IMG/VR virus record: IMGVR_UViG_3300020403_000035
Coordinates: 1-36,624 of that record
From: a virus
Lineage: Duplodnaviria > Caudoviricetes
Reading direction: 5' to 3' (one strand)
Length of the DNA stretch: 36,624 bases
The first letter of the stretch is position 1. Every line of letters begins with the position of its first letter. Shown piece by piece: positions 3,740 to 22,661 of the stretch. A model generated the notes under the pieces. That model was not told the origin of the DNA, made no database searches, and saw nothing but the letters and a program-made list of their open reading frames with translations. Made by a program: the position numbers and the translations under genes.

Positions 3740-3958
3740 ATGTTAAGAGAAAGTATATTAAGCGTTTTAAGAGAACAATCTTCTAAGGTTACTGAAGTAG
3801 AAAGCTCTATGGAAACACCTATTCAGGTACAATCAGAAGTACCAGATAATAGTGATGGTTTTAGTGGCGATCGTGTAGTAGTAGAAAACGACGCTGGTAG
3901 TTTTTTATATATTAAAGTTGCTGAAAGATGGATGAAAACAGATTTGGAGGAAGTATAA
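3740..3958 (+). CDS. Hypothetical protein (72 aa)
   Basis: Coupled ORF within the structural operon. Confidence 0.7.
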   Translation: MLRESILSVLREQSSKVTEVESSMETPIQVQSEVPDNSDGFSGDRVVVENDAGSFLYIKVAERWMKTDLEEV

Positions 3959-4923
3959 TGTCGGATCAAGACAACAGAACAAGAACTGCTGCTGATATAG
4001 TTGGCGAATCGTCTTTAGCTATTGCAGAAGATACTGTAGAAAGACAGAATAGATTTGCTAATTCTGCTATTGGACAAGCATTGTTTTATGGTACAGCAAT
4101 GACACAAATGGCTAGATTAGGCGGTCAGGTAGAAAAAACTATACCAGCTATAAAAGAAGGTATAGGAGAAATGACGCAGTTTTTTAAAGATAGAAAAGGT
4201 TTTAGAGAAAAATTTAATAATTTATCTGATGCTGAAAAAAAAGGTTTTACAGGGTTTAGAGATTATATGCGTCAACAAAGAAGAAAAGTTGATTTAGGTA
4301 TGCAAAATTTTGGGGTTGGAGATGAAATGACATTTTACGGTAAAGATGGTCCAGTATCTGCTGGTACTAGATCTTTGAAACCTTTAGAAGATAGAAATAA
4401 ATTAAGAGCATTTTTCTTAAACAGTGTAGAAGATTATCAGTTTAATCCTGAAACTGGAGAAACGCTGCAGGTAAATCCTGGTTCAAATGTATTAAATATT
4501 GTTGAAGAATCTGCTCCTCCAGCTGGATCGTTTAGATATAGTCCTACTTTGAAATCAACCTTACAGTTGCATAGTGGACCTAATCCTCAAGCAAATACTA
4601 TTGGTGTAATACCTCAAAACATAACAACACCAGGAGTTGTAAATGCTGCTGGACCAAATACAGGTACTCCGCAAGATCCATCTGCTCGTCCTGCTATATT
4701 CCAAGGCCCTTTAACTGGAACTCCTGGTATAGCTCAAGATTATTTAAATATGAATTATAATATTGGAAAAGGTATTTATAATTATGGACAACAAGGAGTT
4801 AATAGTGTTTTAGATTTTTACAATCAAAACATAGCTGGTAATGAAGGAACAATAGCTAGAACAGCATTTGGTACTACAATGAACTTAATTGGTTCAAGGT
4901 TTGGGTATAGCCGTGATAATTAA
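3958..4923 (+). CDS. Hypothetical protein, probable internal virion/ejection protein
   Basis: GGAGG SD and TAATG coupling favour ATG 3958 over 3928. G/Q/P-rich composition and position support an ejection role. Confidence 0.55.
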   Translation: MSDQDNRTRTAADIVGESSLAIAEDTVERQNRFANSAIGQALFYGTAMTQMARLGGQVEKTIPAIKEGIGEMTQFFKDRKGFREKFNNLSDAEKKGFTGFRDYMRQQRRKVDLGMQNFGVGDEMTFYGKDGPVSAGTRSLKPLEDRNKLRAFFLNSVEDYQFNPETGETLQVNPGSNVLNIVEESAPPAGSFRYSPTLKSTLQLHSGPNPQANTIGVIPQNITTPGVVNAAGPNTGTPQDPSARPAIFQGPLTGTPGIAQDYLNMNYNIGKGIYNYGQQGVNSVLDFYNQNIAGNEGTIARTAFGTTMNLIGSRFGYSRDN

Positions 4924-5413
4924 TAAAAAACCTAAATTCGATGAAAAGCTTTATGCACACATGAAGTTGCGTGAAGGATATAAAAATGAAGTATATTTAG
5001 ATACTTTAGGAAAACCTACTTGTGGAGTTGGACATTTACTTACAAAACAAGAACAAAAAGATTTTCCTGTGGGAACTGAAGTAGATGATTACAAAATTAA
5101 AGAATGGTATATGGAAGATATTACCACTGCATTAGAAGCAGCTAAGAAACAAGCAAGCATACTATCTACAGATGATGAACATATTGTTATAGCATTAACA
5201 TCTGTTAACTATCAACTAGGTAGAAGTTGGACTAAAAAGTTTCCTACTGCTTGGAAGTGTTTGTGCCATAAAGAGTATGATCGTGCTATTGATGAAATAA
5301 TGTACGCAGACAAGGATTCGGGTAGACATTCACGTTGGTACAAACAAACACCAGTACGTGTAGAAGATTTTGTAACAGCAATAAAAAGATTAAAGGAGAT
5401 ACATAATGGCTAA
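4889..5413 (+). CDS. T4-like lysozyme (GH24 muramidase)
   Basis: Catalytic E-x8-D-x5-T triad in REGYKNEVYLDTLGKPTCGVGH, plus C-terminal SRWYKQTPVR. The start is uncertain (TTG 4889 or GTG 4913). Confidence 0.9.
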   Translation: MVQGLGIAVIINKKPKFDEKLYAHMKLREGYKNEVYLDTLGKPTCGVGHLLTKQEQKDFPVGTEVDDYKIKEWYMEDITTALEAAKKQASILSTDDEHIVIALTSVNYQLGRSWTKKFPTAWKCLCHKEYDRAIDEIMYADKDSGRHSRWYKQTPVRVEDFVTAIKRLKEIHNG

Positions 5414-6113
5414 AATGTATGATAATATTTTAGAGTGGGCTAAAGACAATGAAGTTGAATTATCTTCTAAAGATAGAAATCTTATTGTTAAGTCAGGCGG
5501 TATAACTTCTTTAAAAAATGCTACACCAGCTAATTATTATCAGATGGGTGTTGAACCAACAAATAAGAATTACAAGGATATGTATAAAGAAATTAAAAAA
5601 CAAGGAGATGGAATGGCTAATCGTGATTTTATGACAGACTATCAACGTGGGAATGCTCACGTTTGGGGAAGAATAAGTGGAGAGTCTCAAACATTAAGAA
5701 GTGGTTTAAAGTCTACAATAAAACATGGAAGTTTATATAAAAAATTCGAAAATGATAAAAATTTTCAAAAATTTTATAAAGCTGAAACAACTGATAAAAA
5801 AATAAAAGTTATTAAAGATGTTTTAGGTAAGAAAACAATGGCACCTTTTGATGAATATAGCTTTGAGGACTATGATAAATATTTTAAAAAACATATGGCT
5901 GTTATGCCTGAAGAACCAGTGCGTAGTAAAGTTGTACAACCGTATGTAGATAGAGAGCAACAGAATTACGATGAAATGGAAGCACGTGTAGATGCGGTTA
6001 AAAAACAAGCGTCTTTAGAATATGCGCAATATTTTAATGAAATGAATTGGTTAAAAGCTATTTCTCCTAATTTAGAATTTAAACCATTTGGTAGTCAAAA
6101 GGAGGTATCATAA
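5406..6113 (+). CDS. Hypothetical protein (235 aa)
   Basis: AAGGAG SD and coupling to neighbours. No motif recognised. Confidence 0.7.
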   Translation: MAKMYDNILEWAKDNEVELSSKDRNLIVKSGGITSLKNATPANYYQMGVEPTNKNYKDMYKEIKKQGDGMANRDFMTDYQRGNAHVWGRISGESQTLRSGLKSTIKHGSLYKKFENDKNFQKFYKAETTDKKIKVIKDVLGKKTMAPFDEYSFEDYDKYFKKHMAVMPEEPVRSKVVQPYVDREQQNYDEMEARVDAVKKQASLEYAQYFNEMNWLKAISPNLEFKPFGSQKEVS

Positions 6114-6580
6114 TGATGGGATACATAGTAGGTGCTATTGCTGGTGGTGTAATGGCAAATGCTCAAAAGAAAGCAGAACAAGAACGTAAAAATCAAGTAA
6201 GAAATACAACATCTCAAGGTATAAGAGATTTACAACCATTATATGCTGATTACAGAGCTGATGCTGCTATTGCAGCAGGATTACAATTTAATCAACAAAA
6301 TTTAGCCGTAGCTAATGCACAAAGCGGTTATGATATGGAAATGAGTGGATATGGTAGAACTAACTTAGCAGGTTTTGAAAATCCAGCAATAGGAGATCCT
6401 ACTAGCAGATTACAAGCTATAGGCATACAAAATCAATCTAGCTTACTAGCAAACTCACAAGCATTAGAAAATAGACTAGAAACTTTAGATGCAGCAGAAA
6501 GACAGCTAAGAGGACAAGCGTTGCAGAGTGGAGTAGTATTACCTAGTACAGAAACAATTTTAGCACAGGGGGAAAAATAA
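6113..6580 (+). CDS. Probable internal virion/ejection protein
   Basis: Hydrophobic G/A-rich N-terminus followed by A/Q-rich helices, as in small podovirus ejection proteins. AGGAGG SD. Confidence 0.6.
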   Translation: MMGYIVGAIAGGVMANAQKKAEQERKNQVRNTTSQGIRDLQPLYADYRADAAIAAGLQFNQQNLAVANAQSGYDMEMSGYGRTNLAGFENPAIGDPTSRLQAIGIQNQSSLLANSQALENRLETLDAAERQLRGQALQSGVVLPSTETILAQGEK

Positions 6581-7782
6581 TGGCAAATTATCAAACAGAT
6601 TTTTTACAGGCATTATCTATGGCTGGTAATTCTTTGTCAGGATTAATGCAGGATATACGTGAACCAACTTTTCAAGAACAGTTAAAGTTGCGTGAAGAAT
6701 CTCAAATGAGATTAAATCAACAAGGACAAAACTTTGCTTTAGAAAGAATGGGCGTAGATCAAGATTATGCTTTAGAAAGAATGGATAAATCAACTGAAGA
6801 AGCTTTAGAGCAATATGGTGGACAAAAAATAATAGACTTTCAGGATATGAAAGATAGGGATGAATATCTTAATTTAAATCCTGAAAGAGCAGAACAAATG
6901 CAAAAAATAGAACAAGCTATTAAAGAAAGAGATACAGATTGGCTAAGAGATAATTATGAAGAAAATATTGATCTTCATAAAGATATAGAAATATATGCTG
7001 AAAAAGCTAACAAAAAAGTCAATGAACAAGATTGGTTAAATTATTTATCCTTTGGTATGTTTGGATATGAAGGTAAAGATAAAATACAAGCTGAAAGAGA
7101 CGATTTCTTTTTTGATAAAGAAACAGGAAGAATGTTAAGAAGAAACGATGAGTTTTACAAACAAGAAAGAGACTTTAGAGAAGTAAACAAAGTAGTAGAA
7201 CAAGCAGCTGGTGTAAGTCCTGAGTTCAGTCAAGAAAATCAAGATATGCAGGGCGGTTTAAATTCTTACTACGGAATGTTTGACTTAAACGATCCTAATC
7301 AAATGAATGCAGCACATACATTTTTTCGTATGCAAAATGAAGGTATGTATGCTGAAATGCTTGTTCAGAATCAAAAAATGACAGCAATGGATGCTATACT
7401 CGGAGAAGGTAAAACTCCTGAATTGAGTGTAGAAGATATTATTGCGGGTGTAGATAAACAAGTACCTAAAGATAGATTGTTAAGAAGAACTCCAGATAAT
7501 AGAATGGAATACACAGCAGCACAAAAAAATGCTTACGCAAGTTCTTTAGGTTTGGTTACCTTGCAAGCACAGTATGCTTTACAAGATAAGTTCGGTGGTA
7601 TTAATAGAGACCGTCAAAAAGAAGCGTTAAAGGATCTTGTACAAGCTAAATCTATGGCTGAAAAGCTAATGAAGAACACTAAGTTTGGTAGTACTCCAAA
7701 AGATCAAATAGATAGAGATAAAAAATATTATCAAGAATCTATTAAATTAATTAATACTTGGATGTCTGCATTGCAGCGATAA
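6580..7782 (+). CDS. Probable internal virion/ejection protein (400 aa)
   Basis: Helical Q/E/M-rich protein with an 11-aa ALERM repeat. It lies directly upstream of the giant gene. Confidence 0.55.
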   Translation: MANYQTDFLQALSMAGNSLSGLMQDIREPTFQEQLKLREESQMRLNQQGQNFALERMGVDQDYALERMDKSTEEALEQYGGQKIIDFQDMKDRDEYLNLNPERAEQMQKIEQAIKERDTDWLRDNYEENIDLHKDIEIYAEKANKKVNEQDWLNYLSFGMFGYEGKDKIQAERDDFFFDKETGRMLRRNDEFYKQERDFREVNKVVEQAAGVSPEFSQENQDMQGGLNSYYGMFDLNDPNQMNAAHTFFRMQNEGMYAEMLVQNQKMTAMDAILGEGKTPELSVEDIIAGVDKQVPKDRLLRRTPDNRMEYTAAQKNAYASSLGLVTLQAQYALQDKFGGINRDRQKEALKDLVQAKSMAEKLMKNTKFGSTPKDQIDRDKKYYQESIKLINTWMSALQR

Positions 7783-7785: not shown

Positions 7786-10700
7786 ATGTTCAAGTTAGAT
7801 AGAAGAATAGAATTACTTCAAAATGAACTTGAAGGCGGTAGAATTGATGAATTTCAATTTGCTATGGGCCTTAAAAAGTTCTATGATCGTACGCCTACAT
7901 CATTTGATACACGTAGTCTGCGTTTTATGGAGACTAAAATCAATGAAGCAGGATTACCTCTTACAGAAGGTAGGCAAGGCCGTAGTGACGGTATTTTAGC
8001 ACAAACTGTATCTGGGTTAATTGAAGGTTTTACAACTTTTGGTTTTGCAGATACGCCTGATACATCCGCAGAGCGTATAGCTAACAACGTTGGACACTTA
8101 ATTGGTTTAGCACCAAGTTTAGTAGTTTCTACTATTACTGGTGGTAGAGCTGCAGTAGGTGTTGTAAGTCGTGGTTTAAGAGAAAAAGCTAGAAAAAGTA
8201 AGAATGAACGTATAGCAAAAATTGCTGATCGTTTAGACGAAAGTTCACAGTCTTGGGAAAATAGCAATCTAAAGATTAAAAAAGGTATGGATGCTATGGC
8301 TAGACTTACTAGAATGAAAGGTTCTCCTACTGGTTTTGATCCTCAAACAGGAAAACCTTTGTATGGTCTTGTATCTTTTCCTGGTTTAGCAGCAAACTTT
8401 ATTCAAAAACAAGCTACTAAAGGACTTCACAATAACAATGTAAGAGTCTTAGAGTATATGAATAAAGGAATACTTAAGAGCAAGTACATAGATAAAGGTG
8501 CTGTAGAAAACATTGTAAATCAATCTATACACTTAAGTTTATTAATGGCTATGTCTTCACAACCTTTAGGTACTAGAGGCGAAGGTATGAAAGGTATGGC
8601 TTTAGCTGGTGTTCATGGAGCTGTAGCAGGTGCAATATTTGGAGGTATTGGCGAGTATGTAAACATTGGTAGGATGTTAGGTAGCAGCAATAAGATAGTA
8701 AGAACTTCTGGTGAAAATGTTGTACGCAGTTTTGCTAAAGCTTTAGGAACACAACCAAATAGAATTGACCAATATAACACTATTAATTTTATTATGCGTG
8801 GTGGTGCAGGGGTAGGTTATGGTACAGTTACTTCAGAACTTCATGATTTACCATTAGAAGATCAAATATATGAAACATTATTAGCTGCGTTTTTTAGTGT
8901 AAACAGTAGAGCATCTTTTGAGAATAGAGCTACTAGAGATATATATAACTCTATGAATGCAATACCAAGAGATTATAATATGAAACAAGCTAGAAAATGG
9001 CTTACTGAACAACCTTGGTATCAAAACGAAACTTCTGAGTATCAAGCATATTGGAGTAGATATTTAAAAAATATACAACAACAACAGATAGATTATACTG
9101 TTAATCAATTTAACGACATTGTTTTGGCTTATGCAGAAACATACAAAGAATTAAAAGAAAAAGGTATTATTACTCCTGAAATGGAGCAAAAAGCTAAAAC
9201 AGATCGTAAAGCTAAAGAAAAAATATTATCTGAAATGTATGATGCTTTAGATAAACAAAAAGCTGAAATAGAAGAAAGCATTATAGCTAATCGTACAGAA
9301 AAACAAATAGGTGACACAGAACAAGTTGCTAAAGATATTGAACAGAAAAAATTTAGATTAGACTCTATTACGTTAGAAGACGGTAGAACTATTGAATATC
9401 AGGTACAAGAAGTTGATCCGTTGTCTGAACATTTGCCTAAACAAAAATCTTTAAAAGATATATTTGTTGAAGTTAAACGTAAAAATAAAAGTGCAAGCGT
9501 ACAAGATTTGCACAATATGTTTAAAAAGACTATAGATGATGCAAATTATGATGTAAATACTTTTGTTAGAGATGTTGTAAAAAAATATAGAATTAATATT
9601 AGTGAACAACAACAAAGAGATTTAATACAATCTGCACATTATTTAAAAAATATTGATCGTTTTCCTATAGCTAGAGTTTACATAGTAGGTGAAAAAAGTT
9701 TAAAACAAGAAAAAGAAATGGATCCATTGCTTGAAAAAGAAGCTCCTGAAACTGATATTTATGATAAACCTATAGGTGGTGATAAAGCAGGTAACGCTAC
9801 GCACGGTTCTAGTCGTGTAAATAAAAACAATAATTTTAACACCAAAGATGGTGATACGTTGCATTACGATTACGATTATTTAACTACTCGTATATTAGAA
9901 CGTATATGGGATCATCAATCTAATCAATATAGAAATAGACCTAGAGTTAAAAATGTTGCACCGTTGTCTGTAGATATTTTTAGATATATACCTAAATCAG
10001 AAAGAGATGATAAAGGTAGACGTATTAGACCATTAGAGTTAGCAGAACATATGACTAACAAACAATTAACTAATATGGCTAAACAATTAGAAAAAGAAGG
10101 TGCATTTATTTATGCAGCTAACGGTGAAACTGGTAGAATACAAGTAAGAGCTTATCCTTGGAGAACAGGAACAAAATTAAAAGAAATAAAAAAGATAAAT
10201 GATTTTTTAATTGATGATTTAAAAATACCAGTTACAAAAGCTAGGTATAAAAGTAATGTAGCTACTTTAATGTGGCGTATGCAAGAAACAGGATTAATTA
10301 GATTAGGCGAAATGCCTACTAAAAAATTGATACGTGAATGGGTTAAAACAGAACCGTATGAAAGTGTAACTAAATTTCAAAAACGTACTAAACATCATTC
10401 TGGTATTGAAATGGCTTTAGATCCAGCATATTTTATTGGATACAAAAACATTACAAAAACACGTCAAATTAATAGAGAAACCTTTAATCCTAAAAATTTT
10501 ACAGATATTAAATTATCGTTAGATGTTGATACTATTAACAGGTTTTTAAATGATAAACGTTATACAGATATTGATATGGAACCAATATTTGAAAACACAT
10601 ATATTACATTGTACGGTGAGCGTTCTAGCAAAGTTAATAATGATAGATATGCACAATTTGAAAAAGATAATCCTGAGCTAATAAAACGTGTAGAAGAACA

Positions 10701-13700
10701 TAATAAAAAAGTATTAGAAACTATAGAGTCTAACACATACCGCTTGCAAGACAAGTTTAATGAACTAACTTTTAATCAACTTGGAAAAATACCTGAGTAT
10801 GAAGCTTTGAGCAAAATAGATATGGATGTTACTTCAAGATATGATGGTGCTACTTTTAGACATATTGTAATAGAAGATTTGCCTAGTAGTGTAAAAAATA
10901 TGGGTGAAGCATTAAAGGAAAATAATTCTGGTACAGATGGTGTTACAATGACACACAACAAGTTAGCTGATATTATTATAAAAAATTATGGTTACGATCC
11001 TAGAACAGGTGTAATGAAAACATTAGGACTGTTTAGACCTAAGTATGGCGTACAGGGACAAATAATTAATAAGACTGCTGATTTTACTATGGATAGTTAT
11101 TGGCAAGCTTTTGCAGATAAACATGGTTTAGATAAAATACATTATGCTTCTGGTATTAAAGAAATGACTGGAGTAGAACCAACTAAAGTACGCTGGAATG
11201 AAAAAACAAAAGAGTTTGAACTTGTTGGTAAATTAAATGTATTTAAATCTAAAATAGAAGACAATTATTTGAATTTAAATGTTTATGAGAATTTTAATAA
11301 GATAGGTAATCAAAAACTATTGCAGCAGGTTATGTCTAATATGAATACTTTTGAAATGGACCCTAACACTGAGATAGGTAGGAATTATTGGAAAAAATGG
11401 GAAGAGCTTGTAGCTAAGGCATCAGCTGGAGATCCTAAAGCAACAATGCTTGCAGAAAAAGAATTTGCTGCAGGAAAAGAATTGTCAGGTAAAATAGATG
11501 ATATAAGTATAAAAGTTTTAGATCATATATTGTTTGAAAAACCTGATAGTAAAGCAGCTCGTAGCATTATAAAACAAATTTTAGAAATAGAACGTACATC
11601 TGATTTTGATAAAGTAGCTATGCAGGAATGGACTGAATATCGTCAAAACACTTACAATAGACAATTAGTAGAAGAGTATTTAATAGATACTAACTTTGAT
11701 CCTGGTACATATTTAAGACCTGGTGTTAGGGAGTATATTAATGATAGAATACAACAATATGTAGCTAAAAGACTTACTAGGCCACGTATTAAGCACTCAT
11801 ATAGCTCTAAATTGGGCTTATATGACGTTTTAATTAGTCAACGTAAGCAAAAGTACTCTAAAGCAAAGAAAGGCCTTGCAAACGACGAATTTATGATGAA
11901 CGAAGGTGCAAGAGATGTTATTGAAGTGACTGTATATGAAGGTAAGAAAAACGAAAAAACAATGACACTTGGAAAGTTTTGGGATACTTGGGTAGATATG
12001 AAAGAGAATCCTGCTAGCAAGAAATCACAACGTGATTTTGAAGAGTATGATTTTGTCCGTAAAAATGTAGGTTTTATACGTTCACCTATGATAAGTAATG
12101 GTGGTTTTCGTATAGGAGAATTTGTAGGGTTTGCTAAAACACGTAAAGGTATATCATTAATTACAAACGAATACAATGATTTTATGATGTCTGGTGCTGA
12201 CAAAGACATTGACTCTGCACATATGTTTTGGGGACTACCAAAAGAATTGACTGCTGCATACAAACAATCTATGGTACAAGATCAGTTAGTTCGTATTAAA
12301 GACGGAAAGAAAGATACTGTAGATTTAAAAGATAAAGCTATTGGTAAAGAGTTAGCAAATGCAGAACCACCAGCTAATAAAAAAAGAGTACAACATTTAG
12401 CAGATATTTTAGATACTACTACTAAATTGAAAAATGGTAAAATTGCTACAATGTCTCAGGACTCTATTGGTTTAATTACCAATGGTGTTAATTTAATTGG
12501 TTTAGAGCTAGATATTAATAAACAACTAGAAGATGTTACTCCTCGTACTACAGAAATACAGCGTGAATCTATACGTAAAAATTATTTAAATGCATTTAAT
12601 GAATTAATTATACATAGAAACGTATTATTAAATAGTTATATAGATGCAGCAGATCTTGCTAATATAGATTTACCTATTGTTGCTTTACGTAAAATGCGTG
12701 GAATGTATGAATGGATGTATGAAGGAGCAGAGACTGGTGCTATGATGGATAGAAGACAAGCTATCAAAAATATGCACAAACTAGTATTTGGTGCTAAACG
12801 TAAAGGAGATATGCCTTTAGATATACAAGAAACAGTAATTAATTATTTAGATAAAACCGATGGTGCTAGATCTTATTTAACTTTAATAGCAGAACAATAT
12901 AATGGTTTGCGTTTAGAGTTAAATCCTTGGAATGTTTTTAGTAAAGAACAAAGTGTAGCATTATTAAAAGACATATCTGCAGAAATAAAAAATCATCCTA
13001 TATATCGTAAAGTAGGAATAAAAGATTTTTCTGAACATTTTATGAAAGGTTTAGATCCTAAAGAGTTTGACAACATTGTTGAGTATGAAACATTTTTATG
13101 GAACAAACTAAATCAAGTTATAGATTTGTCTACTGCACTGAGAAAGTCTAATGAATTTAAAGAATATGCTATAAAAGAATTAGAAATGACAAACGAATCT
13201 GTAGATGATTTTATTACACAGGTAGTAGAGCTTACATTTGAGCAGCGTAATAGACTATATCAATCGTTTAACAATAATCAGAAATATTTTAAAAAACACA
13301 ACAGGCGTTCTTATGGTGATCAAATAGCTTACACCAAAGTTATATTAAGAGAGCAACTACAGGAATTATCTAATAGAAGAAAAGAAGAGGGTAAACCATT
13401 ACCAAAAGAAGCTTTTGAAAAAGTAGAAGATTTATTTGATATGTTTTATATAGCAACTCCATTGATTAAATCTGATTTTGTAGGATTTAAAGGAGAAAAT
13501 CGTTTTAAGTTTTTAAAATCAGTAAATAGCAAAATAAATGAGTTAGTAAAAGAAAAACAACAAAAAGAAAAACTTGGAGAATTTTTTAATAAAGATGTAG
13601 AGTTAGAAAATTTATATGCACAACGTGCTGCATTGCAAGCAGAGTTTACAGGACAATTACCTGATCGTGAACAGACTTGGGCTATACGTGCTAGAAATAA

Positions 13701-16700
13701 AGAGTATATGTCTAAAGCTAGATATGAAACATTAAAACTTTCTCAAGAATCAAGAGAAAAAAGAATTAAAGAAATACGTAAAGAGTTAGATTTAGATAAG
13801 TTTGAAGAAGTTGTAATGGACGATTTAAATGCTCCACCTAACGGAAGACAGTCTAAGGTAGAAAGTGATGGTAAACAAGTTGTACTAAAAACAAAGAAAA
13901 TGGTTCCCGATTTAATTGATTTGGATATATTAACTGATCCAGTAAAACTTGACGCATTAATAGACAGCTTACAACCTTTAAAGAAAACGCAAACTCCTCA
14001 GTTAAGAGAAAACTTAAAAGAATTAAGAAATTTAATTTACTCACAAACAGCAGTTGGTAATGAAAAGCTCTTGTTTAATTTACCAAGTGAATATGCATTT
14101 TTCTTAAAACGTGTAGATAGAGTATCTGATTTTATGCAGAATATAGATGGTACACGTTTTGGTTTCTTTATGAAAGCAATGAACAATAAATACGGAAAAG
14201 AAGATGTGTTAACAAAGATTAAAAGAAACAAAGAATTGTTAAAAGAAGCAGAAAATACAATTAAAGCAGATATCACTAACGATGTTCCTTTAGATACTTT
14301 TGATGAGTTTTATAAAAAACGTGCAAAAGAAAATACAAAAGAAGAGTTTATGGCTATATCGCAGCAATATAAAGTGTATGTAGAAAGCTGGGCAAAAGGA
14401 AATAAAGATGCAATTAATGAAGTTGCAGATAAAACTGAAGCTAAGATATTAAAAGATTCTGATAATATTATATATGCATATAATGAAAAAACGCAAAAGA
14501 TACAAAAATTTGCTACTAGAGAAGCTTTTGAAAAAGCAAATAACAAATTTGTTTATATACAAGAGCTAGAACCTTCTAGATTGTCTGAATTAATTACTAA
14601 TGAAATTAATATATTAAATCCAAGTAGAGCACATTTGCGTGATCCTAAAGGGTTAGACCAGGTTTTAGGTATTTATCAAAGATTAAATAGAGAGATTGCT
14701 CCTTATGAACAACGTTTACAATTTGATAGGGTATTAAAATTCAACGAAAAGACTGGACAAATGGAAGAGTATGGTATTAGCGTACCTACTTCTACATTAA
14801 AAACTATTGCTGATACAATATACAGATTGCATGTAAATGCTAATCAGTTATCAGACTTTAATACCAAGTATGTTGGTTTAATTAAAAAGGTTTTAAATGA
14901 ATCTCAAAAAGGTTATAAAGATCATGGACCAGCATTATGGGAATATGCAGCAGTTAAGCATACACTTGGTAATGATAATCTTGGACCTAAGAAAGATCAA
15001 ACAACCGTAGAAGAACAAGTAGATTTGTTAAATCGTTTTGATAAAGCAGAAAAAGAATTAAAAAAAATAAAACAAAAATTTTATTACATAGATAAAAACG
15101 GAAACAAAGAATTTGTAAGTGCTGTAGAGTATGCTGATATAATAAGAACTAAAGTAATACAACCTATTATGGAATACTCTTTAAACAGTATGATTAAAAG
15201 TAATTACAAAAATATAGATAAATTATTTGCACAACAAAATTTATTCCCTGTAGAATTTTTTGGTAAAAAAACATTGCCAGAAACTCATCCAAAATATTGG
15301 CAGCAACGTATGGCTCAACTGTTTTTGAATAAACATGGACTTATAGAAGTTCGTAGATTATTATGGTTTGATAAAACAGTTCGTTTACAAGCAGACAAAC
15401 AAACAGGATTTGATTTACAAAAAAATCATTTTCATTATGACGATGTTGTCTGGATAAAATTTCATTTAAATTTACGTGATCATATACTTGACAAATATTC
15501 TGAATACGTAACTAAAGGCGGTTCATTAGACTGGAATGCATTAACCAGAACTAAAATTAAAGTTGGTAAAAAAACTATAACTATGGCAGACAGAGTTCGT
15601 AAAGACATACAAAACTTTACTGGTAAGTACGGAGAATGGTCAAGCGAAGTTGGTAAGTTTGCTGAAGATGGTGTTTCTGATAGGTTCTTTCCACAAATGG
15701 GACAAATGGATACTAATTTAAATAAAAAGTTTTTAGAAGAAAGTTGGTTACCTTCTGAGAAAAAACGTATTATGGAAAAAAAGAATTATCTACAATTAGT
15801 AGATGCTAATTTGCGTGATGATGTAAAGAATAGATTAATTACATTTAAAGAAGCAAAAGAATTAGAATACCAAAGATTAGAAAATAAACTTTTAGGTATG
15901 AATAAATATGAAAATCCTTATATAGATTTAGATGCTATGGATATGTTAAATCAAATAAGTACTAGAAAAGGAAAAAATCCTTATCCTGGTATGGGTACTA
16001 CAACACACGCAAGATCACGTTTAGAACGTTCTATGCCTGGCTGGAGAAGTGATGGTAATGTACCGTTAGACTATATGAATAGTTTAAGTAGAGGATTGAT
16101 GCAGAATATAGGTGCAATGTATAGTAGAATATATTTAGATAAGTTTTTAACACAAGCTAGACAAAATCCACGTATGCGTGAAAATGCTGAATTATGGCAT
16201 ACTACAATGATTGATTTTACTAGAGGTTATATGGGATTCCCTTCAACAAGAGTTTTAGAAGTACACGGTGTAACGGCTAAAGAAATGCAGTTATTAAAAG
16301 AATGGCAAGCATCTGGGTTTGATCAAAGCTGGAAAACTGGAAAGTTGGATGTTGTAAGTAAAAAATTATTGTATGATTTAGAGCAACAATCTATACCTAC
16401 TTTAAGTGAACAACGTATGAAAAAACGTCAATTAATTGTTAATGCTTACAAATCTACAAATGGTAATAAATTAAATGCATTACGCAAAGAATTAAAAACT
16501 GTTAAAAATGAAACTCGCAAAGAAGAAATAATAGTTGAAATGGCAAATTTAAAACAAAAAATGTTTGAACTTGTTAAAAAACAATATGCTGCTTATCTAA
16601 AAAAAGAGACTTTAAAAAACTTAAACGATTTTATTAAAGATGAAAACATAGATAAATTAAATATTACCAAGACACCAAGACAATGGTTTAGTGATGAAAG

Positions 16701-18114
16701 CGTTGGTAATGTTGCATTAAAGCTAGAAAACAGAGTATCTAGTGTTTTTGGTAAGATTACAGGTAAAAAATTATTTCCTAAATTACCAGACGATATACAA
16801 TTAAGACATAAAGCTTTAGTAGAGCGTGCACAATACATATCAGATCTAGAAGGTAGATTTGAGTTGTTATCATTATTGTTTACGCCTAAAGCAGCTATTA
16901 CTAATGTATACGGAGGTTATCAAAATATTATTACAGATACTGGTTTTGACCACTTTTTTAAGGCATTTGATGAAAAATACCTAATAAAAGAAGTATTTGC
17001 TGGTCAAAAGTTTAAATTATTTAATAAACAAACAGGTAAGTTTGAGTTTAGAGAGTTAAAAAATAAAGAAGATATACATGAAATGATTGATTCTTTAGGA
17101 CTATTAGAAGGTAATTTGTTGCAAGAATTAGCATACATACAAGCAAATGAACCAGTAAATGCTAAAAAGTTTTTAAAAGAATTAGTTAAAAAAGTAAATG
17201 CACATACAAGATCACAAAAGTTGTTTGGAAATACTAAAGAAATAAACAGGCAAATTGATGAGTATGTTAATAAAACTGTAAAAGAACTAGCTAATCAATA
17301 CGGAGTAAGTCAAGCCGTTATGGATAAAGGTAGTTTCTTTATGTCTACTACAGAAAAACATTTAAGACGTAAAGCGTTTTTAGCACATTATTTAAAAGCT
17401 AGAGAAATATATTCTGATCTAGAAGGTAATATAAAAGTAACTGATGACTTTTTAGTAGATGCAGCAAGAAAAGGTGTTGAAGGTTCACAGTTTATTTATC
17501 ACGCTACATACAGACCAAACTTTAGTAATACAGCGTTTGGTAGAGTTATGACACGTTTTCAACCATATGCTTGGAATAGTATAAGACGTAGAAAACAAGT
17601 GTTTGAAGATATGATGGCGGTAGAAGGACATCCTAATTTTGAAGCTAGTAGACGTTTTCAAAGACAAGTTGCTAACGATATGATGACAATGGCATTAGGT
17701 ACATTGTTTGCATACTCTATATTTGAATATGCGTTAGCACCTCCTATGTCTTGGATGAAAGAGAGTGCGGAGTTTTTATTTGGCGATGAAGAAACTAGAA
17801 AAAATGCATTCTTTAGTCAGTATCCAATAAGACAGTTAGCACCATTACAAATTATTACACCTCCAGCTAGTAGATTTATATTACCTCCTTTAAATGGTAT
17901 TATAAATGGTGATTGGGAAGCATTTACTAAATACACTTTATGGACTTATGCACCAGGAGGTAGACTTATGCGTGATATGTACAAGACATATAATAATCCT
18001 AAATATGCTGTAGAATATCAGACTGGACTACCATATAATAGTTTCAAATGGCATATGGCAAAAGTAAAGCGTCAAGCCGAGCAGAGAGAGATTAACGAAG
18101 ATCCAACGACTTGA
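7786..18114 (+). CDS. Giant virion protein containing a single-chain double-psi-beta-barrel RNA polymerase (crAss/phi14:2 gp66-like virion RNAP)
   Basis: 3442 aa. Ordered motifs FQKR, TDG (D1051), VMK, NKT, SGIK, IRSP (R1432) and SGADKDIDS (D1472/D1474/D1476). Also G/A-rich N-terminal segments and an ejection-protein-like C-terminus. Confidence 0.8.
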   Translation: MFKLDRRIELLQNELEGGRIDEFQFAMGLKKFYDRTPTSFDTRSLRFMETKINEAGLPLTEGRQGRSDGILAQTVSGLIEGFTTFGFADTPDTSAERIANNVGHLIGLAPSLVVSTITGGRAAVGVVSRGLREKARKSKNERIAKIADRLDESSQSWENSNLKIKKGMDAMARLTRMKGSPTGFDPQTGKPLYGLVSFPGLAANFIQKQATKGLHNNNVRVLEYMNKGILKSKYIDKGAVENIVNQSIHLSLLMAMSSQPLGTRGEGMKGMALAGVHGAVAGAIFGGIGEYVNIGRMLGSSNKIVRTSGENVVRSFAKALGTQPNRIDQYNTINFIMRGGAGVGYGTVTSELHDLPLEDQIYETLLAAFFSVNSRASFENRATRDIYNSMNAIPRDYNMKQARKWLTEQPWYQNETSEYQAYWSRYLKNIQQQQIDYTVNQFNDIVLAYAETYKELKEKGIITPEMEQKAKTDRKAKEKILSEMYDALDKQKAEIEESIIANRTEKQIGDTEQVAKDIEQKKFRLDSITLEDGRTIEYQVQEVDPLSEHLPKQKSLKDIFVEVKRKNKSASVQDLHNMFKKTIDDANYDVNTFVRDVVKKYRINISEQQQRDLIQSAHYLKNIDRFPIARVYIVGEKSLKQEKEMDPLLEKEAPETDIYDKPIGGDKAGNATHGSSRVNKNNNFNTKDGDTLHYDYDYLTTRILERIWDHQSNQYRNRPRVKNVAPLSVDIFRYIPKSERDDKGRRIRPLELAEHMTNKQLTNMAKQLEKEGAFIYAANGETGRIQVRAYPWRTGTKLKEIKKINDFLIDDLKIPVTKARYKSNVATLMWRMQETGLIRLGEMPTKKLIREWVKTEPYESVTKFQKRTKHHSGIEMALDPAYFIGYKNITKTRQINRETFNPKNFTDIKLSLDVDTINRFLNDKRYTDIDMEPIFENTYITLYGERSSKVNNDRYAQFEKDNPELIKRVEEHNKKVLETIESNTYRLQDKFNELTFNQLGKIPEYEALSKIDMDVTSRYDGATFRHIVIEDLPSSVKNMGEALKENNSGTDGVTMTHNKLADIIIKNYGYDPRTGVMKTLGLFRPKYGVQGQIINKTADFTMDSYWQAFADKHGLDKIHYASGIKEMTGVEPTKVRWNEKTKEFELVGKLNVFKSKIEDNYLNLNVYENFNKIGNQKLLQQVMSNMNTFEMDPNTEIGRNYWKKWEELVAKASAGDPKATMLAEKEFAAGKELSGKIDDISIKVLDHILFEKPDSKAARSIIKQILEIERTSDFDKVAMQEWTEYRQNTYNRQLVEEYLIDTNFDPGTYLRPGVREYINDRIQQYVAKRLTRPRIKHSYSSKLGLYDVLISQRKQKYSKAKKGLANDEFMMNEGARDVIEVTVYEGKKNEKTMTLGKFWDTWVDMKENPASKKSQRDFEEYDFVRKNVGFIRSPMISNGGFRIGEFVGFAKTRKGISLITNEYNDFMMSGADKDIDSAHMFWGLPKELTAAYKQSMVQDQLVRIKDGKKDTVDLKDKAIGKELANAEPPANKKRVQHLADILDTTTKLKNGKIATMSQDSIGLITNGVNLIGLELDINKQLEDVTPRTTEIQRESIRKNYLNAFNELIIHRNVLLNSYIDAADLANIDLPIVALRKMRGMYEWMYEGAETGAMMDRRQAIKNMHKLVFGAKRKGDMPLDIQETVINYLDKTDGARSYLTLIAEQYNGLRLELNPWNVFSKEQSVALLKDISAEIKNHPIYRKVGIKDFSEHFMKGLDPKEFDNIVEYETFLWNKLNQVIDLSTALRKSNEFKEYAIKELEMTNESVDDFITQVVELTFEQRNRLYQSFNNNQKYFKKHNRRSYGDQIAYTKVILREQLQELSNRRKEEGKPLPKEAFEKVEDLFDMFYIATPLIKSDFVGFKGENRFKFLKSVNSKINELVKEKQQKEKLGEFFNKDVELENLYAQRAALQAEFTGQLPDREQTWAIRARNKEYMSKARYETLKLSQESREKRIKEIRKELDLDKFEEVVMDDLNAPPNGRQSKVESDGKQVVLKTKKMVPDLIDLDILTDPVKLDALIDSLQPLKKTQTPQLRENLKELRNLIYSQTAVGNEKLLFNLPSEYAFFLKRVDRVSDFMQNIDGTRFGFFMKAMNNKYGKEDVLTKIKRNKELLKEAENTIKADITNDVPLDTFDEFYKKRAKENTKEEFMAISQQYKVYVESWAKGNKDAINEVADKTEAKILKDSDNIIYAYNEKTQKIQKFATREAFEKANNKFVYIQELEPSRLSELITNEINILNPSRAHLRDPKGLDQVLGIYQRLNREIAPYEQRLQFDRVLKFNEKTGQMEEYGISVPTSTLKTIADTIYRLHVNANQLSDFNTKYVGLIKKVLNESQKGYKDHGPALWEYAAVKHTLGNDNLGPKKDQTTVEEQVDLLNRFDKAEKELKKIKQKFYYIDKNGNKEFVSAVEYADIIRTKVIQPIMEYSLNSMIKSNYKNIDKLFAQQNLFPVEFFGKKTLPETHPKYWQQRMAQLFLNKHGLIEVRRLLWFDKTVRLQADKQTGFDLQKNHFHYDDVVWIKFHLNLRDHILDKYSEYVTKGGSLDWNALTRTKIKVGKKTITMADRVRKDIQNFTGKYGEWSSEVGKFAEDGVSDRFFPQMGQMDTNLNKKFLEESWLPSEKKRIMEKKNYLQLVDANLRDDVKNRLITFKEAKELEYQRLENKLLGMNKYENPYIDLDAMDMLNQISTRKGKNPYPGMGTTTHARSRLERSMPGWRSDGNVPLDYMNSLSRGLMQNIGAMYSRIYLDKFLTQARQNPRMRENAELWHTTMIDFTRGYMGFPSTRVLEVHGVTAKEMQLLKEWQASGFDQSWKTGKLDVVSKKLLYDLEQQSIPTLSEQRMKKRQLIVNAYKSTNGNKLNALRKELKTVKNETRKEEIIVEMANLKQKMFELVKKQYAAYLKKETLKNLNDFIKDENIDKLNITKTPRQWFSDESVGNVALKLENRVSSVFGKITGKKLFPKLPDDIQLRHKALVERAQYISDLEGRFELLSLLFTPKAAITNVYGGYQNIITDTGFDHFFKAFDEKYLIKEVFAGQKFKLFNKQTGKFEFRELKNKEDIHEMIDSLGLLEGNLLQELAYIQANEPVNAKKFLKELVKKVNAHTRSQKLFGNTKEINRQIDEYVNKTVKELANQYGVSQAVMDKGSFFMSTTEKHLRRKAFLAHYLKAREIYSDLEGNIKVTDDFLVDAARKGVEGSQFIYHATYRPNFSNTAFGRVMTRFQPYAWNSIRRRKQVFEDMMAVEGHPNFEASRRFQRQVANDMMTMALGTLFAYSIFEYALAPPMSWMKESAEFLFGDEETRKNAFFSQYPIRQLAPLQIITPPASRFILPPLNGIINGDWEAFTKYTLWTYAPGGRLMRDMYKTYNNPKYAVEYQTGLPYNSFKWHMAKVKRQAEQREINEDPTT

Positions 18115-18429: not shown

Positions 18430-18624
18430 TTAATCGTTACATTCTTCACATTTTTCTGGTGCTCTAACACCAGTCAAATCAATATCATCGTGATCAAGCC
18501 TATCTTCGGTTGATCTTACAATTTTATTGTTATTTTTTTCTATTGCAACAATAATTTTCTTAGCTATTGATAGTATAGCTTCAGCTTCTTTCTTGTTCAA
18601 ATCCATCACGATTCTCCTTTTCAA
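18430..18624 (-). CDS. Hypothetical protein with C-terminal CxxC
   Basis: ORF ending KCEECND. The real start is probably the second Met (MDLNKK), which follows an AGGAG SD. Confidence 0.65.
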   Translation of the reverse strand: MKRRIVMDLNKKEAEAILSIAKKIIVAIEKNNNKIVRSTEDRLDHDDIDLTGVRAPEKCEECND

Positions 18625-18934
18625 TTTGTAATAGTCTTAAGAATCTCTTTAATGGTATTATAGCAAGAGCTTCTTTTCTATCCATACGTGTAACAACTGC
18701 ATCAACATCGTCTCCGTGATAGTCTGGATACAACCATTGAGCAACTTTCTTTCTTCGTTTTGCTTGTATTGTAGTATCTTCTACTATCACATCAACTACT
18801 TCTGATTTTCCTAACGATCTACCATCGGAAGCATAGGCACGTTTTGCATACATGCCCATGTCCTTAGCTGTGTTTACTATCTCACGTTCGAGATTGTTAC
18901 CACGTACTTTATTTTTATGCGTCACTTCCGCCAA
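18581..18934 (-). CDS. Hjc-like Holliday junction resolvase (PD-(D/E)XK nuclease)
   Basis: K.RG...ERE N-terminal helix, D in VDVIV, and IQAK motif. It lies in the replication module. Confidence 0.8.
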   Translation of the reverse strand: MAEVTHKNKVRGNNLEREIVNTAKDMGMYAKRAYASDGRSLGKSEVVDVIVEDTTIQAKRRKKVAQWLYPDYHGDDVDAVVTRMDRKEALAIIPLKRFLRLLQIEKENRDGFEQERS

Positions 18935-19178
18935 GATTTCCTTGCATACTAACGATGTTGAAATCTTCCTCGTATTTTTTGATAGCTTCTGGTGACTCGT
19001 CCCAGTATCTTAGACCAAATGAAAATTCCATTGGACCGAATCTGGTATCGAACCATAAATGGTTACCAAAATTATTATCCATTCTTGTTGAAAGAACAAT
19101 AAACTTTAACAAACGCAATTCTGCTTTTTGTATATTATTCTTATCTACATATTGTGCGTTAAACAACTTCTTCAACAT
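18915..19178 (-). CDS. Hypothetical protein (87 aa)
   Basis: GGAGG SD and overlap with both neighbours. Confidence 0.7.
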   Translation of the reverse strand: MLKKLFNAQYVDKNNIQKAELRLLKFIVLSTRMDNNFGNHLWFDTRFGPMEFSFGLRYWDESPEAIKKYEEDFNIVSMQGNLGGSDA

Positions 19179-20994
19179 ATGTATTTCCTCCGTTTATTTG
19201 TTTAAATGTCATGTTCGTTGCATTGAATGCAGCTAACATCTTAAATTGACCTTCGTCACGAGATTTTACTGATGTAATTTCTCTAGCTGGATCGTTTCTA
19301 TTACCTTTAATTAATAGAACCTTATCTGCTTTTTGTACAACATTACTACTACCTTTCAAAGAATGTAGATTAATAACATTGTTAGCTGCTGATGTTTTGT
19401 TAAGATGATGTATTGCAATAATAATTACATTAGTTTTCTGTGCTATTTGTTTTAATGCACCTATAACTACGTTTTGCTTTTCTATTTCACCTTTTACAAA
19501 ATCAACTTCAACTTCGTCAGTAGTATCTACAACAAGAACCTTTGGTTCATATTCTGCTACTACTTTCTTGATAGAATCTATCCTTGGTGCTATTGTCATT
19601 ACTTGTACGTGATCTAACTTATCTTTAATACTAAAGTCTGGATTTTCTTTGTATTGTTGTAAAACCCATTCTTTAGGTTTGTTTGTAGCAATTTGTACAA
19701 ATCTTCTAAAGATAAGTTGTTCGTTCATTTCTAACGACAAGAACAATGTCTTTTGTTTTGCTTTCACAATTAGATCTTGTATGAACGCAGTCTTACCAAG
19801 ACCAGTATCACCAGAGAATATAACTAACTCGCCAGGACTAAATTGATATGGATTACAACCATATATTTCTTCTAGCTTAATAGAGTTTTGCTCTAGTTGT
19901 TTTGTTACATAAGTTCTTAACGCATCTTCTAATGCGTCTACACCTTTAATATCTAAAGTATAGTCTTTACGCTTGTAATAGATACATTTTGAATCGCAAT
20001 ATTCTGCCATAATGTGATCATCACAACCATATTGATATGAACCCTCGTAAACATTTGTAACTGTTCTTGTTATTTCTTCTTCAGACATTGTGTTATTTGC
20101 CCAGGTAAACATACCATTAAGGGCAACTAACATTGGAACACCAGCTCTTTTATATGAACTAACCATTCGCATTAGCTTCATATTTCTAGAACCTTTCATA
20201 GGACCTTCGTTAAATACATGCTGCATACAAGAAACTACTGATGTAACATCAGAATCTGTTTTGGTATTCTTGTTATCATACTGAATAGTAGGTGATGCAA
20301 CAACCATAGATTGTAAATACGGTTCTACACTTGGTTCTTTAAATAGAGTACTAAAGAAACTTTCGTTCATACTTGCTTGTGTTTTATTGACATAACTCAT
20401 ATAGCTGCCTTCGCTACTTGCCATTTGTTGTATGTCGTCCATACTTAGTTCTGACAATAGCTGCAACGGTATCCATACTTTATAGAGGTTTGTTTTTGTG
20501 TTTAACGACCATTTGCATCGAATGATCCTTGTCTTATCATAGATGCTATCTGCAAAGTCGAAATGCTTATTCATTGTTAGTTTAAGCTTATCGTGTATAT
20601 CTCTGCTTGGTTGTAAACCAAATACATTCTGTATTTCAATATGGAAACCGCTACCGCTAAACCATAAGTTTATGTCTTCTTCCATTACTCCCTTATCAAA
20701 CATTTCAGATATGCATTGTTGTACATATCCAATAAAATGATCATTAGGTATTTCGCCTTTATCGATGTCAAGTATAATGTAATCGATATATGCAATACCG
20801 TTAAATCCTTTTACTGAATCTGTATCATGTACATGTTCTTCAAAGTCTTTACCAAATGTAAAATAAGAACGATACATTTCATTCTTAAATGCATTTTTTG
20901 TGACTTTACTTTGATAGGTATTAACGTTAGCAACAGTGTTACGTTCGGATAGACCACCTTCTACTAGTTCTAGATAGTATTTATCTTCTTCCAT
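19159..20994 (-). CDS. AEP primase-polymerase fused to a Cys-rich helical domain and an SF4 (DnaB-like) helicase
   Basis: AEP motifs LDID, FSGSGFH and D..YD..R. Middle region SCM...G.RN...YGC...C...C. Helicase motifs GDTGLGKT, SLEM, VLVVD, HHLNK, LKGS and KSR. Confidence 0.88.
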   Translation of the reverse strand: MEEDKYYLELVEGGLSERNTVANVNTYQSKVTKNAFKNEMYRSYFTFGKDFEEHVHDTDSVKGFNGIAYIDYIILDIDKGEIPNDHFIGYVQQCISEMFDKGVMEEDINLWFSGSGFHIEIQNVFGLQPSRDIHDKLKLTMNKHFDFADSIYDKTRIIRCKWSLNTKTNLYKVWIPLQLLSELSMDDIQQMASSEGSYMSYVNKTQASMNESFFSTLFKEPSVEPYLQSMVVASPTIQYDNKNTKTDSDVTSVVSCMQHVFNEGPMKGSRNMKLMRMVSSYKRAGVPMLVALNGMFTWANNTMSEEEITRTVTNVYEGSYQYGCDDHIMAEYCDSKCIYYKRKDYTLDIKGVDALEDALRTYVTKQLEQNSIKLEEIYGCNPYQFSPGELVIFSGDTGLGKTAFIQDLIVKAKQKTLFLSLEMNEQLIFRRFVQIATNKPKEWVLQQYKENPDFSIKDKLDHVQVMTIAPRIDSIKKVVAEYEPKVLVVDTTDEVEVDFVKGEIEKQNVVIGALKQIAQKTNVIIIAIHHLNKTSAANNVINLHSLKGSSNVVQKADKVLLIKGNRNDPAREITSVKSRDEGQFKMLAAFNATNMTFKQINGGNTYVEEVV

Positions 20995-21236
20995 CCTTTT
21001 ATTTTCCCATTAGTTGCTGATTTAACTTCTTTTAGTGCAAATCCCATAAGCTCGTCCGTGAATATATTTTCTTCACGTAACTTTCTAAATGCTCTGGAAT
21101 ATGTACTTGCCGTATGTATTTTGTTATACTTGATTTTACCATAATGTGGTACTTGACTCTCAAAGTTCCAAGTAAAGAATACTTCACCGTTTTCTAAAGA
21201 GTCAAGCCAATTGATAACAATAGTTTTAGCAGTCAT
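20970..21236 (-). CDS. Hypothetical protein, possible winged HTH
   Basis: TASTYSRAFRKLRE resembles an HTH recognition helix followed by a beta wing. Confidence 0.45.
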   Translation of the reverse strand: MTAKTIVINWLDSLENGEVFFTWNFESQVPHYGKIKYNKIHTASTYSRAFRKLREENIFTDELMGFALKEVKSATNGKIKGWKKINTI

Positions 21237-21760
21237 TAAAATGGAAAGTCATCTGCGTTTACACTTTCTTGAACTTCAGGTACGGCAGGTTCTGAAGGTC
21301 CTTTACGAAAGTTTTTCGGATAACCGTCTTTTAATGATTTTTGAAAGTCTTTCTCGAGTTGATCTGTATCATCCCAAGAAGAAACTCTATTCCAAAGATT
21401 GCGTTTATACTTACCAGTAGACTGATAACTAAGCACTGCAATTTCAGAATCTATTAATACATCTAAGTTAATATCACCAGTATCTGATACATCTAAATCT
21501 TTACCAGCTGCAAGATATAATGTATTTACCAAGTCAGGATATTTTAAATCCGTAACTACACCATTTGTATCTTTATCATAGTTTTGATTTAGAAATAAAT
21601 TAGACTTGTATCCATTTGTAGAATCTTCAAGTTCTAATTTAACTGTTGTATCAGTATATTGTGATTCAACTTGTTCTGCTGCAATAATTTTACATTTATT
21701 AATGAAATAAGGTTTATTGCCGCCACCTTGTGACTTTACCTTAGTACCCGTAATTGCCAT
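21236..21760 (-). CDS. Probable single-stranded DNA-binding protein
   Basis: Beta-rich body with an acidic-aromatic tail (ADDFPF). It sits between the annealing protein and the primase-helicase. Confidence 0.75.
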   Translation of the reverse strand: MAITGTKVKSQGGGNKPYFINKCKIIAAEQVESQYTDTTVKLELEDSTNGYKSNLFLNQNYDKDTNGVVTDLKYPDLVNTLYLAAGKDLDVSDTGDINLDVLIDSEIAVLSYQSTGKYKRNLWNRVSSWDDTDQLEKDFQKSLKDGYPKNFRKGPSEPAVPEVQESVNADDFPF

Positions 21761-21771
21761 ATGATACCTCC

Positions 21772-22026
21772 TTACTTTTGGTCATTAGCGTGATCTTGAT
21801 TACGTTCATGTGCACCGTCAATTAGCCCTTGATTGATACTCTCAATATAAGTGCTAAGTGCATCCATTGATTTAGCATAGTCTGCTAATTCTACATCTAG
21901 TAATTCGTCTTTCTCGAATGGTATTCTAATTAAAACAAAAGTACCAAAGTCGTTTACTATATGTTTTGTTTCGCCAGGTTTCATAGCACCAATTCTATGT
22001 TCACTAGGCATTTTCTTTTTTGACAT
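21772..22026 (-). CDS. Hypothetical protein (84 aa)
   Basis: AAGGAGG SD and overlap with the upstream gene. Confidence 0.7.
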   Translation of the reverse strand: MSKKKMPSEHRIGAMKPGETKHIVNDFGTFVLIRIPFEKDELLDVELADYAKSMDALSTYIESINQGLIDGAHERNQDHANDQK

Positions 22027-22585: not shown

Positions 22586-22618
22586 AAGGTTCCTCCGTTT
22601 ATTTGTTTTTATTGGTTA

Positions 22619-22661
22619 GCTTGGACAACTAAGTTAGTATTCCCAACTCAATTATCCAAGC
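22619..22661 (-). promoter_or_regulatory. 19-bp RNA hairpin (possible RNase III site or terminator)
   Basis: Fully paired only on the minus RNA, using four G-U pairs. GAAUA loop and no U tail. Confidence 0.6.

Follow-up and report, generated by a model that had tools for sequence, protein, structure and literature searches.

Predicted two-barrel RNA polymerase of the crAss/QDE-1 type within a giant cysteine-free protein of a clade of small marine phages

The linear virus record IMGVR_UViG_3300020403_000035 (36,624 bases, about 79% complete by CheckV; the whole stretch is called the window here) encodes a giant protein, P0001, in which residues 690–1716 almost certainly adopt the fold of a single-chain, two-barrel RNA polymerase (RNAP), as judged from a predicted structure. 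The core is highly likely to be an active enzyme. P0001 is probably a DNA-dependent RNAP that is packed in the virion, ejected, and used to transcribe early genes. Its open reading frame (ORF) is the final large plus-strand gene ahead of a convergent minus-strand block. The ORF is intact in other assemblies and is not an assembly artefact: in another marine run a single contig reaches across the entire stretch, gap-free and differing by 23 substitutions, no indels were listed in any of the three runs compared with the window, and 35 of 40 listed substitutions fall at third codon positions (hand count). At least half of the window's sampled words were found in seven marine metagenome runs from three studies, one run possibly being the source; no RNA run was among those listed.

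AlphaFold models were built for residues 690–1759 (38 sequences) and 2293–3442. The first model has a mean predicted local distance difference test score (pLDDT) of 85.8 and a predicted template modeling score (pTM) of 0.80, and contains two beta-rich units with a helical connector between them, followed by two long helices (Table 1). Foldseek searches of the Protein Data Bank (PDB) at E ≤ 0.001 returned six matches, all to phage phi14:2 gp66, RDR2, or QDE-1, with gp66 first (3.3e-10); multisubunit RNAP beta-prime chains ranked after these. VIA-align gave Z-scores of 17.8 to QDE-1 (512 residues aligned, root-mean-square deviation [rmsd] 5.4), 13.0 to gp66 (659, 4.7), 12.6 to P23-45 gp64 (471, 5.3), and 9.1 to P23-45 gp96 (401, 5.5). 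A Foldseek-independent search of 48,161 chains gave 17.4 to QDE-1 (535, 5.3), 13.8 to gp66 (656, 4.7), 13.7 to RDR2 (498, 5.1), and 12.7 to P74 gp62 (460, 5.3), while the top unrelated chain reached Z 9.1 across 86 residues. Among predicted viral structures, unnamed proteins matched the core best and crAss-like phage proteins came next. In the alignments, the predicted core spans both barrels, pairing with QDE-1 532–1179 and gp66 609–1815. An earlier note on this DNA had read P0001 as a two-barrel RNAP of the gp66/QDE-1 type; the model, the three fold searches, and the invariance of the residues it named support that reading. The aligned part begins at the very start of the model and ends near residue 1716; the polymerase therefore probably continues beyond 690–1716 in both directions, and part of 1717–2292 may be its clamp. 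By position, the two long helices would correspond to the bridge helix and a trigger element. The first barrel of QDE-1 carries K743 and K767 (PMC1750930), and position suggests residue-level equivalence with lysines of the first barrel here.

The six motifs listed in the earlier note, from TDG to SGADKDIDS, all lie in the P0001 ORF where it had placed them (Table 1). DxDxD occurs once, in the SGADKDIDS loop, with the codons of D1472, D1474, and D1476 at nt 12199–12213. Motif occurrence alone was dropped as proof of a polymerase. Among 2,000 shuffles of P0001, 405 satisfied the published filter for such enzymes, [RK]xPx{20,100}DxDxD (PMC10770324 supplement), 72 contained GxDxDxD, and 8 contained RxP-x20-60-GxDxDxD. 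The motifs by themselves are weak evidence; conservation and fold lift them above chance.

Protein searches returned 15, 27, and 29 relatives (61 distinct identifiers including the query), and scans of viral contigs gave 14 and then 78 loci. The second scan was seeded with the motif, and its loci were therefore excluded from the motif census. The census set of 61 proteins is redundant and partly profile-selected, which favors conservation, and the loop is out of reach in two fragments. Within this set, G1470, D1472, D1474, D1476, R1432, and P1434 are invariant in 59/59 sequences covering the loop, D1051, K1078, K1096, and K1125 in 54/54 covering the first barrel, and D1620 in 52/52, at an overall identity of 20–30%. 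The reading in the earlier note required DxDxD to be conserved in homologs, and the note had also pointed out lysine at the usual aromatic position. The loop reads DKDID (21 sequences), DKDAD (21), DKDGD (6), DKDSD (6), DNDGD (2), DLDID (2), or DLDGD (1). At its second position, 54 of 59 sequences have Lys, 3 Leu, 2 Asn, and none Phe; at the fourth, 23 have Ile, 21 Ala, 9 Gly, and 6 Ser. The lysine of DKDxD is a family signature and no oddity of this phage. In a quick tree of the core, DKDID sequences near the query group together, and DKDAD, DKDGD, and DKDSD sequences fall in other groups; the tree holds no crAss or eukaryotic sequences and so makes no claim on descent.

P0001 is very probably packaged in the virion, a reading backed by its lack of cysteine and its weak gp16-like match. 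Cysteine is absent from P0001 and from 49/49 family proteins longer than 2,400 aa, and 76 ORFs at these loci hold one cysteine in 214,123 residues. Cysteine makes up 0.64% of residues in other ORFs of the window and 1.1% in primase-helicases. The four upstream cassette proteins and their relatives also contain none and are likely smaller ejection proteins. P0001 ends this conserved cassette within the structural operon, in agreement with the earlier view that the gene closes an ejection-protein operon. Cysteine suppression is reported for the ejection operon of Schitoviridae and ascribed to passage through the periplasm (PMC11445570). The order of tail-type gene, small genes, lysozyme, two cysteine-free genes, giant gene, and convergent primase block is kept in 29 of 30 printed loci, as far as each reaches. 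The exception, locus L080 (G024, L106/L107), belongs to a distant phage with 64% TerL identity, a shorter 2,630-aa version of the protein with DKDID, and a different upstream cassette.

Residues 1–450 and 3000–3420 are more conserved than the polymerase core, and residues 1–450 likely contact the membrane or a tunnel. The model of 2293–3442 is all-helical (pLDDT 69.5). Its top match among the 48,161 chains was the phiM1 ejectosome chain 8VB2_A (Z 8.1, 250 aligned, rmsd 4.7; model 41–815 with chain 562–1219). A second search returned the T7 core chain 9JYY_I (Z 7.0, 286 aligned, rmsd 7.0), which we take to be gp16 from its chain length and numbering. The remaining listed matches each covered fewer than 130 residues, mostly a single helical hairpin. 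The phiM1 protein in 8VB2 is the counterpart of T7 gp16, and its aligned part sits behind an endolysin-like domain (PMC11440229). The gp16 lead is credible because the two matches fall in one functional class, and the model leans toward a gp16-like ejection hub at residues 2333–3163. The earlier note had called some 1,900 C-terminal residues unexplained; part of this sequence now has a likely account, at 2333–3163, and a clamp within 1717–2292 may account for more. The ESM Atlas gave two weak leads below the tool's recognition level: LPD38/LPD39 clusters for the C-terminal 560 residues and LPD22 for the N-terminal 600. In BFVD, the C-terminal model matched two unnamed proteins, which also match the polymerase model, and then polyvalent proteins weakly. 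The C-terminal domain of N4 gp50 was absent from the fold matches of this model, which excludes nothing. With a predicted polymerase likely joined to a T7-type ejection domain, the phage group probably injects its own transcription enzyme.

A conserved non-coding element lies between the divergent operons and consists of a TCAAC box, a variable spacer of fixed length, a G-rich tract, TATATA, a CAC-rich box, and a T run. It was matched by pattern in 23 of 24 regions (20 distinct cores) and is visible in the sequence of the 24th. It occurs once in the window and in each of five complete relatives scanned, and is absent from the fragment of the most distant relative. Nineteen copies align with one single-base gap, the TCAAC box keeping a fixed distance from the G-rich tract, TATATA, and CAC-rich box. 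No consensus hairpin was found in the element, no repeated promoter motif was found in the early block, and sigma-70 scans of the element region stayed at chance level. The element adjoins the upstream side of the first leftward gene and is tentatively proposed as a promoter of the P0001 polymerase, with the leftward early block as the likely transcription target. In the window and close relatives, and not in all members, a long inverted repeat (arms 29381–29404 and 29424–29447) flanks the TCAAC box. The first rightward gene (29542–29757) has no Shine-Dalgarno word and, in several relatives, starts directly behind a sigma-70-like pair seen by eye and not listed by the promoter scan; it is perhaps a leaderless host-RNAP transcript.

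The most likely mechanism is drawn by analogy with gp66, N4 gp50, and T7 gp16. P0001 would be produced late and enter the virion, unfolded or only loosely folded, alongside the smaller cassette proteins; on ejection it would thread through a short tail and the periplasm. The N-terminal segment and the gp16-like C-terminal region would seat it at the inner membrane, and the polymerase would refold on the cytoplasmic side. D1472, D1474, and D1476 are predicted to bind Mg2+, with K1078 and K1096 supplied by the first barrel. Transcription would start at or near the element, run through the leftward operon, and in doing so also help to draw in the genome. More speculatively, and rather unlikely as a whole, the clade may have built a crAss/RNAi-type polymerase into a gp16-like protein, giving a membrane-seated enzyme that pulls the genome by transcribing from a single promoter.

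Several observations weigh against an injected polymerase of this kind. P0001 has no Pfam match and no real PHROG match, and plain and two-profile searches of PDB sequences gave no link to a solved RNAP. Global superpositions are loose (rmsd 4.3–6 Å, 9–12% identity; Foldseek template modeling score 0.39 to gp66). The hydrophobic stretches of P0001 are mild (mean hydropathy 1.2–1.3), giving no clear transmembrane helix. The C-terminal model has low confidence over its last 300 residues, and, by the tool's own guide, Z-scores of 7–8 such as those of the gp16-type matches are common among helical proteins. The element may just as well serve packaging or replication: a presumed small terminase gene lies near it as does the first leftward gene, so promoter, packaging site, and origin readings all stand.

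The best-surviving alternative, itself unlikely, is a polyprotein cleaved into separate ejection proteins and a free polymerase, the fusion having no mechanical meaning. In some crAss-like phages, three module proteins are fused and thought to be cleaved (10.1101/2020.03.07.982082), and linker regions at about 870–1000 and 2100–2300 vary strongly in length in this family. However, the HExxH protease motif is absent from P0001 and from four of five other homologs checked, N4 gp50, of equal size and layout, stays whole (PMC13434306), and P23-45 gp96 is full-length in virions (10.1101/2022.12.01.518664). Cleavage fits the polymerase claim and contests only the tethered-motor step. An active two-barrel RNAP made during infection for middle or late genes and left out of the virion, like P23-45 gp64 or SPbeta YonO, is improbable. 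The non-virion RNAPs of P23-45 and P74 match the model at Z 12.5–12.7, about equal to gp66, but P0001 is five times the size of gp64, its gene sits last in the structural operon and outside the early block, it and its neighbors lack cysteine, and its C-terminal region resembles gp16-type ejection proteins. Just as improbable is an ejection protein whose polymerase-derived domain no longer makes mRNA and serves as a DNA clamp, a channel part, or a maker of short primers: the loop has Lys for the usual aromatic residue and Ile for the usual Gly, overall conservation is lower in the RNAP region than in the C-terminal domain, and the missing PolA/PolB (below) would suit a primer role, but the catalytic-type residues are all invariant at only 20–30% identity, gp66 is active despite Ile at the fourth position (10.1101/2020.03.07.982082), and the phage already encodes a primase-helicase.

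The injected-polymerase reading was compared with known systems. Phage phi14:2 gp66 is virion-packaged and makes rifampicin-resistant early transcripts (10.1101/2020.03.07.982082). P0001 shares with gp66 a single chain, the barrel order, the helical connector, and a DxDID loop with Ile at position 4, and gp66 is both its best Foldseek match and its longest structural alignment (656–659 residues). Unlike gp66, P0001 has Lys in place of Phe in the loop, is 3,442 rather than 2,180 residues long, and carries a gp16-like region on the same chain; sequence similarity is undetectable. A tblastn search of P0001 against 50,697 annotated phage records at E ≤ 1 gave no polymerase match. Loops of the crAss gp66 type are DFDxD with Ile or Val at position 4 (10.1101/2020.03.07.982082), whereas the P0001 family never has Phe and shows no sequence orthology, its similarity to gp66 being by fold only. 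The genome is also unlike that of phi14:2, at about 46 kb, with replication genes that are not crAss-like and structural genes whose listed matches include no crAss phage. The early genes of gp66 reportedly share no motif (10.1101/2020.03.07.982082), in contrast to the conserved candidate promoter here.

The eukaryotic RNAi polymerases QDE-1 and plant RDR2 (PDB 7Y7R, 2J7N, 7W82) gave the top Z-scores reported (17.2–17.8, 451–535 aligned), and QDE-1 likewise has two invariant first-barrel lysines. These enzymes differ in being cellular and not packaged, in their DxDGD-type loop, and in an identity of 10–11%. The higher Z-scores to QDE-1 than to gp66 may reflect shorter chains and are no evidence of closer descent. 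Coliphage N4 gp50 and Pseudomonas phage DEV gp71 (Schitoviridae) resemble P0001 in length (about 3,400–3,500 aa), three-part layout, lack of cysteine, and an ejection cassette with smaller genes. N4 gp50 has its three parts with a C-terminal HExxH metallopeptidase domain (PMC5512222) and is a membrane-associated enzyme involved in genome injection (PMC5512222, PMC13434306, PMC4496689). These proteins differ in having that metallopeptidase, which P0001 lacks, and an unrelated T7 right-hand polymerase fold; the P0001 polymerase region matches two-barrel enzymes and so is not of the right-hand type. The likeness to N4 is an analogy in design rather than demonstrated homology. Two tetrameric ejection proteins, T7 gp16 and phiM1 gp48, align weakly with residues 2333–3163 (250–286 residues, Z 7.0–8.1); unlike P0001, they contain a peptidoglycan hydrolase and lack a polymerase. 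In T7, gp16 brings in the host RNAP to act as motor (PMC13434306). P23-45 gp96 combines a two-barrel virion RNAP and a DNA-delivery protein in one chain, as P0001 probably does (Z 9.0–9.1, about 400 aligned). It is a siphovirus tape measure fusion with an N-terminal, clamp-less polymerase and a DFDGD loop, and P23-45 has a second, non-virion RNAP (10.1101/2022.12.01.518664). No description of the P0001 family or its loop motif was found in the literature searched, which included few subscription journals. GADKD, DKDID, and DKDAD are absent from the readable supplements of PMC10770324, whose alignments of 23 RNAP families might include this one.

Injected two-barrel polymerases have been characterized in crAss-like phi14:2 (10.1101/2020.03.07.982082) and Thermus phage P23-45 (10.1101/2022.12.01.518664). 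The P0001 family would extend them to small marine podovirus-like phages, with a metal-binding loop in which Lys is accepted at position 2 together with Ile, Ala, Gly, or Ser at position 4, in a family that escapes Pfam, PHROGs, and PDB profile searches. In 2026, a report left open how the virion polymerases and ejection systems of N4 and crAss phages are related (PMC13434306); a layout like that of N4, a predicted crAss-type core, and a gp16-like region in one protein bear directly on this. The natural DKDID/DKDAD/DKDGD series offers a test of whether, as proposed, Ile at position 4 keeps gp66 in an inactive conformation, and the family would be a deep branch for the origin of RNAi polymerases. 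If the proposals above are true, a gp16-fused polymerase in a 46-kb phage would have reached the N4 design by its own path, starting from an unrelated polymerase, and the element would provide a defined promoter for enzymes of a class for which no initiation signal was found in phi14:2.

Table 1. Positions in the window of P0001, its predicted parts and motifs, and associated features
Feature	Position (nt)	Strand	Basis or description
Giant gene P0001	7786..18114	+	3442 aa, cysteine-free: N-terminal helical segment, predicted two-barrel RNAP, putative C-terminal ejection-type domains
Gly/Ala-rich conserved segment, residues 1-450, mildly hydrophobic stretches ~102-120 and ~267-285	7786..9135	+	Conservation, hydropathy
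Predicted two-barrel RNAP core, residues 690-1716	9853..12933	+	AlphaFold model and fold searches
First barrel (putative double-psi beta-barrel [DPBB] B), residues ~1013-1162, with D1051, K1078, K1096, K1125	10822..11271	+	Model and conservation
TDG (D1051)	10933-10941	+	Motif check
VMK (K1078)	11011-11019	+	Motif check
NKT (K1096)	11068-11076	+	Motif check
SGIK (K1125)	11149-11160	+	Motif check
Second barrel (putative DPBB-A), residues ~1337-1482, with R1432-x-P1434 and GADKDID	11794..12231	+	Model and conservation
IRSP (R1432, P1434)	12076-12087	+	Motif check
SGADKDIDS (D1472, D1474, D1476)	12190-12216	+	Motif check
Two long helices, residues 1544-1620, ending at invariant D1620	12415..12645	+	Model and conservation
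Putative gp16-like helical region, residues 2333-3163	14782..17274	+	Structural matches phiM1 8VB2, T7 9JYY
Residues 3164-3442, most conserved part, low model confidence, mildly hydrophobic helix ~3299-3317, weak LPD38/LPD39-like lead	17275..18111	+	
Upstream cassette, cysteine-free ORFs 3928-4923, 5406-6113, 6113-6580, 6580-7782	3928..7782	+	
Lysozyme gene within upstream cassette	4889-5413	+	
Presumed early block: resolvase-like gene, primase-helicase fusion (19159-20994), many small genes	18584..29306	-	
Single-copy conserved non-coding element between divergent operons	29415..29498	.	Pattern and alignment

The phage is a member of a syntenic marine clade with genomes of about 44–54 kb. TerL was found in 26 of 30 related records, including 17/17 of those at least 90% complete, with full-length identities of 78–90% except for one at 64%; 15 of these 17 records measure 43.6–53.7 kb. 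Genes for TerL, a P22-like portal, the primase-helicase fusion, and the resolvase-like protein lie in the window together with the beginning of an SU10-type capsid gene, and a complete relative additionally has tail fiber genes. PolA/PolB was found in 0/5 complete relatives searched. The best 25 of 823 TerL matches included no crAss phage, nor did any of 5 capsid and 10 portal matches, all below 30% identity. The primase-helicase fusion matched only Bacillus and Moorella phage primases (6/6 records), again below 30% identity. As had been proposed, the replication module is not crAss-like, given these primase matches and the absence of PolA/PolB. Genomes of Crassvirales measure close to 100 kb or more and encode PolA or PolB and a Bacteroidetes-type primase (PMC10136315), and this phage differs from them in replication genes and in genome size. 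In GTDB genomes, neither the polymerase alignment nor TerL found a prophage or host contig. Of 38 genes, 22 have a Shine-Dalgarno-like word ahead of them (background 6%), and Bacteroidota largely lack such words; the host is therefore likely a diderm other than Bacteroidota.

Several minor features of the window and its relatives were recorded. Evolutionary rates are very uneven within one genome: TerL (30893–32386) is 78–90% identical across the clade and the polymerase region about 20%. In one 89.8-kb record (G003; L009/L021 and L066), the polymerase locus and the TerL gene each occur twice, in copies from different clade branches, and the record is probably two genomes joined. Some relatives carry an early-region block of three genes that is absent from the window (L097:3378–6826, L101:8169–11751), encoding a 620–680 aa protein without clear family, a JAB-domain protein, and a ThiF/E1-like protein (tested in L097), an arrangement resembling a prokaryotic ubiquitin-like system. 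Adjoining DUF6915 and DUF6878 genes lie in the early block at 25870–27245, and the pair is kept in close relatives. An 826-aa protein at 609–3089, without a match in Pfam or PHROG searches, precedes the ejection cassette, was found in 67 loci, and is possibly a tail nozzle. A 72-aa ORF at 3740–3958 has counterparts of 450–575 aa in several relatives, which suggests a variable extension on a small tail-associated protein.

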